From positions 248,001 through 312,000 of the forward strand of contig JBDOQK010000005.1 in NCBI GenBank assembly GCA_040437565.1: a stretch of DNA of 64,000 nt, given 5' to 3'. This DNA comes from Albugo candida (taxonomy: Eukaryota). The translations under genes and the position numbers were made by a program. Below are positions 46,416 to 51,068 of the stretch, piece after piece (the stretch's first letter is position 1; each line of letters opens with the position of its first letter). Below the pieces are notes generated by a model that was given only the letters and a program-made list of their open reading frames with translations, searched no databases and was not told the DNA's origin.

Positions 46416-49400
46416 ATGGAAGGCCGCGTGATCGAGACCGATGTGCCTTCAAAGCTCTACGCGCTCAATCTCCGAAAACTGAGTGAAATCTCACGACTTT
46501 CCGAACGCGAACTAGTCGAAGGAATGTACAACGCCGATGACGCAGTCGATATGCAAGGAGTAGTTGTAAATCGAGGAGATCAAGTTCCATTCGAAGCCAT
46601 TGGCAAATCACCCGATTCCGCCGTCATAACCTCCACACCTGCAGTCACTCAAGTCCTAGTCACAGCTGCATCCAGCACAATGTGTTTAGACGGCTCCGAC
46701 ACGCCGAAATGCTTGCTTGTTTTGGGAGAATATACCGTGATTGAGCACATATTAGCGCAATTGTATGTGGCAGGAATGGAACGTATTGTAATTCTTATTT
46801 CATATTTTGGATTTGAAATTATGCAAACAATCAAAAATTCTTTTTTGTATCCCAAAATGAACATAACATTCCTCAACCTCGGCGATGAGACGCCCTACGG
46901 TCACGCTCGTGCCTTATTATCGGCCCGAGAGATGTTCAGTACTCCTTTTTTGATTCATACAGCAGATCATATTTTCGATAAGACGATTTTGCATCGATTA
47001 GCATCCTTTCAGTTGCACGGATCTGTTGCATGCGTCCTTGTCGACTCGGAAATCGTTGGAATATCGGGTCTTCCTGACACTGCAGGGAAGGTGCAATATG
47101 GCGTCGATGGAAACGTCCGACGCATTGGTCGACATCTCAAGCAATATGATGCAATTGATGCTGGTTTGTTCCTTGTGACCGACCGTATCTTTGCAGCCTT
47201 GGAATTACTCGCATATGAGAAGCCAAAATTCTCACTCGCTGAAGCTTTGAATGTATTGAGACCGACATTTGGATTGAAATATATGGATGTTTTGAATGAA
47301 GTATGGCTCAGTGTAGAAACAAAAGAACAACTGGATCGAGCTATCGAAAATGATACAATTTTGTCGTTATCTCCGTGGCCTGTGATTGTCGCAAAAGATA
47401 TGACTGTAGAGGAAGGATGTCGATCCGCATCCGACACCGGGAAAAGTGTGTTTCTCGCTGTATCAGCCACAGATGATGACTCATCGCTACGATTAGTGGA
47501 TGCGAGTGACACTGGTGCGATTTTCGAAGGGTTTGTGGTCGGAGTCGATCAGCTGGAGGATGAGTATGCCGCGGAAGGCTTGACAGAAAACACACCACTT
47601 CTCAAGCCAATTTCGTCTCCAAAAGGAAGCAGCACTTCACGTCGACAATCAACCAGCAAATTGGTCCGAAAACGAAGTTCTTATCTCGAAACCTCTGAAG
47701 AACCTTTTGTTCTCTCCATTCCGGTCCAGACACGCACACAAGCATCAAATGTGCTTTCAATTGATACGTTCGATAACGCTGAACGGAACGCATACATCAT
47801 CGAGCTAGCCAAATCACCGACCACACCTTCTATCGCCCAGCAATACATTCTGGCCGTATCGGGTGGTAGCGATCCCAATTTGAAAAAGCACACGCTGCTT
47901 CGTCAGTTGTCGAGTCTGCCTACAGACGTGACAAATGTCGCGTTAGGAGCAACAGAGCTCCATGATGGGCGATTGCAAGTACAGGTATTGGTCGAGCGAC
48001 GAGTTCCGGCCATCGGGTACATTCTCCTTGTAATGGCGCTTTTCGCGATTTCTTCGATGGGTGTAGCATTCAATCTCCAGCACGACGTGGATCCGTTCCT
48101 GAAATTGTTTTGGCGATCATCAGCATCAATGCTTGTATTGGTCCCTCTATCCGTAGTCTCGATCTTACAGAATGGCTCTCCTCCACTGACAATTCGTCTT
48201 GTGCTTCTTTTATCGACAAGTTCGATCGCGCACGCTTTATTCCTCATGACGTTCTTATGGTCACTGAGCCATACATCCATCAGTCATGCGTATATTTTCA
48301 ACAATTGTCATTCATTACTGCTTGTGCTTGGTCGCGTGTCCATTGGAAATCAAGTCCCCAAGCATGAATTGATAGGCACAGGCATCGGTATTGTCGGAGG
48401 TGTCCTTGCGGCATTTGATCAGTCTTTGATTCAGGCGTCCAATATCGTCCGAGTCTCAGCTTCGGGAGACTTTGTTGCTTTACTTGGTGCGATTGGTGGG
48501 GCTCTGTACCTCACCAGCGTCAAGCAGATTCGACGCGATGTGGATGTTCCTCTTCTGCTTACCGCTATCTTTGGTCTCACAACACTTTTCCATTTCCCCG
48601 TCTTTGCATTACTTCAAATTCCGTACAATTTCTCAACTGACAGCAAAATCGGTCTTTTTGGATGGACAGCAAATGTGCATACCGCTCTCATTGAGCTGTA
48701 TATCGTGCTCATTTGTACGATTGTCGGAACGCTCGGGTACGTGGGTGTGCTCAAATACTTTGATCCGATTGTGATTTCTATCGTCATGCTCGCCGAACCG
48801 ATTCTCGCTTGTTTTTTCGGTGTTTTGCTCCACGTCGAAGTGATCCCTGGAATGTATACAATTGCAGGCGCTCTNNNNNNNNNNNNNNNNNNNNNNNNNN
48901 NNNNNNNNNNNNNNNNNNNNNNNNNNNNNNNNNNNNNNNNNNNNNNNNNNNNNNNNNNNNNNNNNNNNNNNNNNCGAGAGATGTTCAGTACTCCTTTTTT
49001 GATTCATACAGCAGATCATATTTTCGATAAGACGATTTTGCATCGATTAGCATCCTTTCAGTTGCACGGATCTGTTGCATGCGTCCTTGTCGACTCGGAA
49101 ATCGTTGGAATATCGGGTCTTCCTGACACTGCAGGGAAGGTGCAATATGGCGTCGATGGAAACGTCCGACGCATTGGTCGACATCTCAAGCAATATGATG
49201 CAATTGATGCTGGTTTGTTCCTTGTGACCGACCGTATCTTTGCAGCCTTGGAATTACTCGCATATGAGAAGCCAAAATTCTCACTCGCTGAAGCTTTGAA
49301 TGTATTGAGACCGACATTTGGATTGAAATATATGGATGTTTTGAATGAAGTATGGCTCAGTGTAGAAACAAAAGAACAACTGGATCGAGCTATCGAAAAT

Positions 49401-51068: not shown

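Follow-up and report, generated by a model that had tools for sequence, protein, structure and literature searches.

A fused nucleotidyltransferase-fold and EamA/DMT transporter protein with a rewritten catalytic loop in Albugo candida, conserved across oomycetes and marine algae

In the oomycete Albugo candida, a single intronless gene encodes an 867-residue multi-domain membrane protein that joins a nucleotidyltransferase-fold (NT) domain, resembling inositol-1-phosphate cytidylyltransferase (IPCT), to an EamA/DMT transporter. The gene lies within a 64,000-nt stretch of assembly GCA_040437565.1 (contig JBDOQK010000005.1, positions 248,001–312,000), called the window here, to which all nucleotide coordinates refer unless a locus is named. 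Other oomycetes and marine algae share this architecture, so the fusion protein is likely to sense or process some small metabolite that carries a phosphate group, acting at the transporter. Its NT domain folds like a COG1213 cytidylyltransferase but lacks the G-x-G-(T/S)-R loop of competent nucleotidyltransferases and falls short of the IPCT equivalog threshold. We tentatively prefer the reading that the NT module has become a ligand-binding, probably non-catalytic domain that regulates the transporter. On this proposal, the NT domain of the window protein and its closest orthologues would no longer work as a normal cytidylyltransferase, while its pocket would still bind a nucleotide-linked or phosphorylated small metabolite, with a CDP-alcohol, a cyclitol phosphate or a phospho-base as candidates. 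The domain would then act on the transporter as a ligand-sensing or regulatory module, as in GMPPA and eIF2B, and a second oomycete paralogue, which carries the arginine usual in its clade, may be the catalytic form.

The relatives of the NT domain were sought by sequence, profile and fold. The Pfam model NTP_transferase (PF00483) matches marginally, at 22.1 bits against a cut-off of 21.2, and NTP_transf_3 (PF12804) stays below its cut-off (19.5 bits versus 27). The top NCBIfam model is the IPCT/DIPPS equivalog NF041135, at 60.3 bits against a cut-off of 580, and it is matched only in its IPCT half (model positions 7–214); Pfam found no CDP-OH_P_transf domain in the fusion protein. Searched against solved structures with phmmer, the sequence hits the A. 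fulgidus IPCT first (2xme, E-value 4e-10), and IPCT also leads with a 54-row profile of the family (E 1e-14). Foldseek, run with an AlphaFold2 (AF2) model, places the IPCT entries 2xme and 2xmh on top (E 1e-12; target template-modelling (TM) score 0.81–0.85; 0.84 for 4jd0), followed by RmlA and UGPase, with PntC-AEPT at rank 24. Membership of the NT fold is thus given by the marginal PF00483 match together with the Foldseek TM scores. A first-pass annotation of this DNA had proposed a likeness to IPCT from a series of motifs. All of them are present (PKCLLVLGEYTVIEH, ADHIFD, RIGRHLKQYDAIDAGLF and WLSVETKEQL), and the lead of IPCT entries by all three approaches agrees with that proposal. Prokaryotic relatives are commonly fused to CDP-alcohol phosphotransferases, which the annotation had also stated.

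The catalytic loop was compared in an alignment of 145 NT domains, comprising 84 canonical domains and 61 rows of a clade that lacks the loop; they were drawn from 153 candidates, of which eight were dropped for an NT match shorter than 190 aa or none. In the window protein, S86, T88 and C90 stand where 82–83 of the 84 canonical rows carry G, G and R, such that both glycines and the arginine of the signature are gone and Lys98 is retained. A count by eye shows A-A-S-S-(T/Q)-(M/V)-C-L in every one of the 27 rows that make up the orthologue group of the window protein. The residues K98, D184 and H185 occur in all canonical rows, and each is shared by at least 90% of the 54 rows in the family alignment. 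Altogether, 70% or more of the canonical rows agree at 55 positions, of which the window-type protein retains 33, including, besides these three, K225, R239, D248, G250 and W297; further losses relative to the canonical rows are G129, N156, N163-G164, M182, D219, D222 and D299. The critical residues of the T. maritima IPCT are R16, K26 and D112, as quoted second-hand in a paper on the related enzyme CpgD (PMC12275187); the substrates that this paper gives for the COG1213 family are phosphosugars, phosphocholine, phosphoglutamine and phosphoglycerate. In the phmmer alignment, the arginine of G-A-G-K-R-L corresponds to R16 and the lysine of P-K to K26, and R236 and R239 of the window protein match the K-I-G-K of both IPCTs. 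Between Albugo and Pythium or Phytophthora, identity reaches 65–73% in the NT domain, compared with 53–70% in the N-terminal domain, 49–56% in the membrane domain and 40–47% in the middle region. With 121 of 242 columns invariant in 14 orthologues, the NT domain is the best-conserved part of the protein. This pattern indicates that it is not decaying in the Albugo/Pythium/Phytophthora lineage and that its pocket is under selection.

A scan with the NT domain against 1.84 billion representatives gave 1033 matches at E ≤ 1e-3, and the family's own EamA domain lies downstream in 33 of the 150 matches listed. The query is covered by 41 proteins from many oomycete genera (E 0 to 6e-125), in most cases over 99–100% of its length. 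The architecture occurs in Peronosporales, Pythium, Saprolegniales, haptophytes and pelagophytes. Two paralogues each are present in Albugo laibachii (863 and 888 aa), Plasmopara halstedii and the haptophyte Prymnesium parvum. Other fused members come from Achlya hypogyna, Aphanomyces stellatus and the pelagophytes Aureococcus anophagefferens and Pelagophyceae sp. CCMP2097, and a transcript-derived open reading frame from MMETSP (P0195) holds both domains. Database names for the fusion are generic ('DMT superfamily', 'EamA domain-containing', 'MobA-like NTP transferase'). A full-text literature search, whose scope excluded the supplementary tables of oomycete domain-combination surveys, found no paper on it. 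The first-pass annotation knew of no characterised eukaryotic protein with this architecture; this stands as regards functional study, but the architecture itself is already in the databases. Two candidate reports concerned other proteins: PscRXLR1/PITG_17484 (PMC3320632) is a different, 332-aa EamA protein, and the cytidylyltransferase content of PMC5592239 is limited to phosphatidate cytidylyltransferase.

In a quick IQ-TREE phylogeny with support from the Shimodaira–Hasegawa-like approximate likelihood ratio test (SH-aLRT) only, the 61 rows without G-x-G-x-R fall on one side of a branch with 99% support. The canonical rows closest to this clade are a protein from a Bradymonadaceae metagenome-assembled genome and 630-aa NT-DHQS-like fusions (98%). 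Fusions of this kind, in which a canonical COG1213 cytidylyltransferase is followed by a DHQS-like sugar-phosphate cyclase over about 630 aa, were found in Myxococcota (Bradymonadales, Polyangia and others; loci L001–L028). At locus L003, the fusion gene (7001–8890 of that locus) is followed by genes for an SDR and a LuxC-like reductase, a set that may represent an uncharacterised cyclitol pathway. We regard it as possible that the eukaryotic clade as a whole came from bacteria long ago. The first-pass annotation had considered a horizontal origin possible; one particular to Albugo is not supported, given the wide distribution of the architecture, the neighbouring Vps39 and TRAPPC11 genes and a guanine-plus-cytosine (GC) content like that of the flanks.

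Within the fused family, 24 of the 27 rows outside the window's group carry A-[AS]-R-P (scored by eye), with an arginine two residues before the canonical one; of the other three, one lacks the region and two are Saprolegniales rows without the motif. These two rows, from Achlya (P0058) and Aphanomyces (P0074), join the window's group with 88% SH-aLRT. The former has P-Y in place of P-K, and the latter has P-L in its place as well as N for D184. Five Saprolegniales proteins of 531–573 aa, from Achlya, Saprolegnia, Thraustotheca and Aphanomyces (P0209–P0212 and P0214), retain the transporter together with the N-terminal and middle regions but have no NT domain; they are gene models, in which mis-prediction is possible, and may form a natural deletion series. 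Other members of the 61-row clade have the NT domain fused to a methyltransferase, namely in the amoebozoan Vermistella (P0057) and the euglenid Dinema validum (P0073, 1043 aa), where the N-methyltransferase resembles SDMT (2o57, E 2.5e-53). Further partners (P0096 and P0142 among the proteins) are a Gfo/Idh/MocA oxidoreductase, a kinase-like region and a beta-lactamase-fold domain. The DHQS-like and Gfo/Idh/MocA partners, along with the likeness to IPCT, point to a cyclitol substrate, and the SDMT/PEAMT-like partners point also to methylated amines or phospho-bases. Oomycete lipids provide aminoethylphosphonate as a further candidate substrate.

The first-pass annotation had left two possibilities, a coupled uptake-and-activation module and a metabolite-gated transporter, and the loss of the G-x-G-x-R loop leads us to favour the latter. 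The window group has lost both the canonical loop and the substitute arginine of its clade, yet its NT domain is better conserved than any other part of the protein. Several observations weigh against regulation without catalysis. The lysine and the aspartate, two of the three named critical residues, are retained together with the adjacent histidine and most pocket positions; we infer here that D112 of the T. maritima IPCT is D184 of the window protein, in the motif xxDH, although the numbering does not match exactly. The rewritten loop is nearly invariant across Albugo, Pythium and Phytophthora, which would fit a working non-canonical active site too, and eukaryotic UDP-glucose pyrophosphorylases are not known to carry this arginine either. 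Fusions of clade members to methyltransferases, Gfo/Idh/MocA and other enzymes suggest that these NT domains are real enzymes. Furthermore, the tie between the window group and the degenerate Saprolegniales rows reaches just 88% in a quick tree, and the loop-loss argument draws on aligned sequences rather than on model coordinates for basic residues at the loop site.

These points lend weight to an alternative in which the NT domain is catalytically active, as a non-canonical cytidylyltransferase in physical linkage with the transporter; this is possible, though we consider it less probable than regulation by a ligand-binding module. It could operate in two ways. An imported substrate might be activated at the cytosolic mouth of the transporter, following the logic of LicC and LicB, a phosphocholine cytidylyltransferase and a DMT choline transporter paired in one operon. 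Alternatively, the NT domain might synthesise a CDP-alcohol or CMP-phosphonate that the DMT domain then exports into the secretory or vacuolar lumen; IPCT passes CDP-inositol on to the membrane domain fused to it, and nucleotide-sugar transporters of the same superfamily carry CMP- or NDP-linked cargo. The closest structures are true cytidylyltransferases, K98, D184/H185, R236/R239, D248 and W297 are retained, and the loop and the whole NT domain are very strongly conserved. Clade relatives are fused to metabolic enzymes, bacterial sisters to a cyclase, and IPCT-DIPPS (4mnd) sets a precedent for an NT fold on a membrane domain. Set against this, the loop glycines and arginine are absent, the clade's substitute arginine is missing from all 27 orthologue rows, and in Saprolegniales the Lys and Asp, or the entire NT domain, are gone from relatives that keep the transporter. 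Around the 48 closest NT genes of bacteria, which are mostly Myxococcota NT-DHQS fusions, a search with an oomycete-specific profile of low sensitivity found no EamA gene out to 7 kb, and so gave no operon-level support for a coupling of NT and DMT. The analogy with LicC and LicB drawn in the first-pass annotation fared poorly with the family profile, as LicC (1jyk) matches over only 38 residues (E 1.8e-4) and no LicB chain appears at E ≤ 1.

A bolder combination of the two ideas, which we consider improbable, would make the family an unrecognised kind of eukaryotic transporter. The A-A-R-P paralogue would produce a CDP-alcohol or CMP-phosphonate at the cytosolic mouth of the DMT domain and channel it into the secretory or vacuolar lumen for head-group transfer, and the A-A-S-S-T-M-C paralogue would serve as an allosteric product sensor that gates transport. 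The synthesis of sphingolipids of the ceramide-phosphoethanolamine or ceramide-aminoethylphosphonate type would be an example of such a role. A Golgi-lumenal, CDP-ethanolamine-dependent synthase is known in flies (PMC9978793).

It is also improbable that the NT fold is there for oligomerisation or as a scaffold, perhaps paired with the second paralogue or another protein, with neither catalysis nor a small ligand and with a transporter substrate unrelated to nucleotides. NT-less forms in Saprolegniales, the persistence of degenerate forms and the joint occurrence of the N-terminal and middle regions with the transporter, even where the NT domain is missing, would be in keeping with it. However, the conserved residues cluster in the pocket, at positions that canonical enzymes have in common with it (K98, D184, H185, R239, D248, G250 and W297), and not on the surface alone.

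The full-length AF2 model (mean predicted local distance difference test (pLDDT) 84.2, predicted TM score 0.74) divides the protein into five parts (Table 1). The small N-terminal domain matches no Pfam family and no signal peptide was found in it; it occurs also in haptophyte members and in the NT-less Saprolegniales forms. The middle region, described in the first-pass annotation as an acidic, Ser-rich linker, is indeed rich in Ser/Thr and slightly acidic (net charge −7 over 200 aa). It is more than a simple linker, however: the full-length model shows mostly strands at pLDDT 75–93, with disorder only at residues 385–413 and 444–448. Modelled alone (AF2, 12 rows), the same region gives pLDDT 42 and no confident fold, and the models suggest that it probably packs on the other domains. 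The ESM Atlas offered no usable match for the middle region or the whole protein. No hydrophobic signal peptide was found ahead of the first membrane helix and the first ~530 residues precede that helix; they should therefore be cytosolic.

Two short motifs in the middle region deserve mention. The acidic-dileucine-like E-x-T-P-L-L lies in a loop with pLDDT below 50 and is a possible adaptor-protein sorting signal. All 15 sequences compared have its E391, P394, L395 and L396, and both leucines are likewise constant in a set of 12 sequences that includes paralogues and Saprolegniales. Beside a disordered loop, R-K-R-S-S (residues 417–421, positions 47664–47678) is conserved in the Peronosporales and Pythium orthologues and is a possible kinase site.

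The membrane part contains the two repeats and ten helices of the EamA/DMT superfamily. Pfam EamA matches twice, scoring 49.9 and 58.5 bits where the cut-off is 28.2 (E 5e-13 and 1e-15), and AF2 places ten helices across residues 532–832 at pLDDT ~90–96. The 54-row family profile matches YddG (5i20) at E 1e-5 and 5y78 at E 2.6e-3 over only 86 residues. Neither Pfam TPT nor Nuc_sug_transp matched the fusion protein at E ≤ 0.01, and the transporter part as a single-sequence query against the PDB returned nothing at E ≤ 10. The relatives of standalone type that were found (185–592 aa) are all oomycete proteins. By these comparisons, the transporter is an EamA/DMT member, and a very divergent one. 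Its family-specific invariant residues are W566-R567, Y-I-F-N-N and E794-P795, which together form a candidate substrate site. The invariant Y-I-F-N-N lies in helix 4 (residues 626–630; positions 48291–48305, and 50340–50354 in the duplicate described below) and is reminiscent of F-Y-N-N, a nucleotide motif that GDP-mannose transporters carry in a different helix.

As printed, positions 46416–51068 form one open frame of 1550 aa on the forward strand. A run of 100 N interrupts it, and the 1949 bases ahead of this gap (46926–48874) recur exactly after it. Such duplicates recur at other 100-N gaps of the window, which identifies this one as a systematic scaffolding artefact produced by unmerged contig overlap: four of the ten gaps are flanked by exact duplicates that touch the gap (418, 1927, 1949 and 251 nt), and at a fifth an 802-nt repeat stops 66 nt short. 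An artefactual duplication had already been suspected in the first-pass annotation, and the collapse it proposed (46416–48874 joined to 50924–51068) yields the 867 codons. Other open frames that cross repeat-flanked gaps of the window are inflated in the same way. Three substitutions (A69T, S364T and L715I, all within residues 1–819) and no indels separate the two pieces (819 and 697 aa) from P0003, a separately called protein of 867 aa that they tile. The first copy of the transporter domain starts at 48006 and is cut at 48874.

The frame is collinear with the 863-aa protein of A. laibachii Nc14 over 100% of its length at 85% identity, so no intron is required; together with the P0003 match, this bears out the single intronless frame that the first-pass annotation had seen joining both domains. 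Independent contigs from public runs of uncertain kind (RNA or DNA) span 46411–48874 without a joint and count as evidence for contiguity, not transcription. A contig of runs X1/X9 adds ten letters 5′ of the gene, with an in-frame TGA two codons before the ATG, and the ATG at 46416 is thus the first in-frame start; the A. laibachii protein is annotated with the same N-terminus. A 64-kb contig of run X13 bridges 46310 to 46411 with 1391 letters in place of 100 N in the window, such that the sequence between the divergent Vps39 and transporter genes (about 1391 nt in that run) is absent from the window. The fusion gene lies in an ordinary oomycete chromosome context, with a GC content of 0.44, equal to that of its flanks, and the open frame of Vps39 is truncated at its 3′ end by a gap at 43194–43293. 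A mis-assembly of two genes, or a recent transfer from a prokaryote to Albugo, could be read into the two 100-N gaps and the duplicate at the locus and the best matches of the NT fold to prokaryotic enzymes, but has next to no credibility given the unbroken contigs, P0003, the 41 covering oomycete proteins, the NT and EamA order in 33 of the 150 matches listed, both domains in P0195, the neighbouring genes and the even GC content.

Table 1. Features of the fusion gene and its surroundings, in window coordinates
Feature	Position	Strand	Basis or remark
Small N-terminal domain, aa 1–66, beta-beta-alpha-alpha-beta-beta	46416..46613	+	AF2 pLDDT ~88–91 for aa 11–60
NT domain, IPCT-like, COG1213 type, aa 79–320	46650..47375	+	sequence, profile, fold
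Rewritten signature loop, aa 84–99, AASSTMCLDGSDTPKC in place of AAGxGxRL...PK	46665..46712	+	alignment
Middle region, aa 321–530, partly ordered beta, Ser/Thr-rich	47376..48005	+	AF2 model
E-x-T-P-L-L, aa 391–396, acidic-dileucine-like, in disordered loop	47586..47603	+	conservation
EamA/DMT transporter domain, aa 531–833, ten helices	50055..50963	+	complete in second copy; Pfam, AF2
C-terminal tail, aa 834–867, plus stop codon	50964..51068	+	frame; residues 851–867 disordered
Codons 1–819 plus 2 nt of codon 820, first copy	46416..48874	+	frame translation
Scaffold gap inside frame	48875..48974	.	100 N, artefact
Exact duplicate of 46926–48874, aa 171–819	48975..50923	+	unmerged contig overlap, not biology
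Scaffold gap 5′ of start codon	46311..46410	.	100 N; ends 5 nt before ATG; ~1.4 kb in another assembly
Repeat-flanked 100-N gaps	12274–12373, 27381–27480, 38174–38273, 48875–48974, 57867–57966	.	flank comparison
Vps39 (CNH, Vps39_1, zf-Vps39_C domains)	43186–46269	-	domain search; long intronless open reading frame
TRAPPC11 (Foie-gras_1)	51402–54866	-	domain search; long intronless open reading frame

The building blocks of this protein are well known, while their fusion, conserved across oomycetes and haptophyte and pelagophyte algae, has no studied member. Important pathogens of crops and fish belong to the oomycetes, and the matches listed contain no counterpart from plants or animals, which may interest those seeking oomycete-specific targets. 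If the NT module is a sensor, it would represent a new way of gating a DMT transporter by an enzyme-derived module. If it is an enzyme, eukaryotes would have a COG1213-type cytidylyltransferase that uses a non-canonical active site and is joined directly to a carrier, and this could supply a missing step in the head-group or osmolyte metabolism of these lineages. The two oomycete paralogues and the graded decay in Saprolegniales provide a natural series in which to follow how an enzyme fold might turn into a regulatory domain.

Among known systems, YddG (5I20) and the triose-phosphate/nucleotide-sugar transporters (5Y78) share two EamA repeats and ten helices with the Albugo protein, whose own domain is very divergent. 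PntC (6PD1/6PD2) has the same fold as the Albugo NT domain, but stands at the Foldseek rank given above and at E 2e-3 with the family profile; a fusion of PntC-AEPT type (P0151) sits among the canonical relatives. Oomycetes contain ceramide aminoethylphosphonate, which makes CMP-aminoethylphosphonate a candidate ligand. LicC belongs to the same broad COG1213-type NT family, as stated in the CpgD paper (PMC12275187). LicC and LicB are encoded by separate genes, with a canonical loop in the enzyme, whereas in Albugo there is one fused protein with a rewritten loop. GMPPA/GMPPB (7D72–7D74) and the epsilon and gamma subunits of eIF2B share the NT fold: with the family profile, a GMPPB chain is matched at E 2e-9 and eIF2B epsilon/gamma at E 1e-5 to 1e-6, and Foldseek finds 7d74. 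GMPPA and eIF2B epsilon/gamma exemplify a non-catalytic, regulatory use of this fold, but they act in soluble complexes, have a C-terminal left-handed beta-helix and no attached transporter, and the comparison implies no orthology. The closest likeness is with IPCT (2XME/2XMH of A. fulgidus and 4JD0 of T. maritima), which shares xADHxF, (K/R)-I-G-(K/R), xDxGxF and W..V(D/E)T with the Albugo protein. The latter differs in lacking G-x-G-x-R, in its score far below the equivalog cut-off, in its additional N-terminal and middle regions and in its host, a eukaryote and not a thermophile. IPCT-DIPPS (4MND), like the Albugo protein, has a soluble NT fold fused to a membrane domain; its membrane partner is a CDP-alcohol phosphotransferase, and that of the Albugo protein is a DMT transporter.

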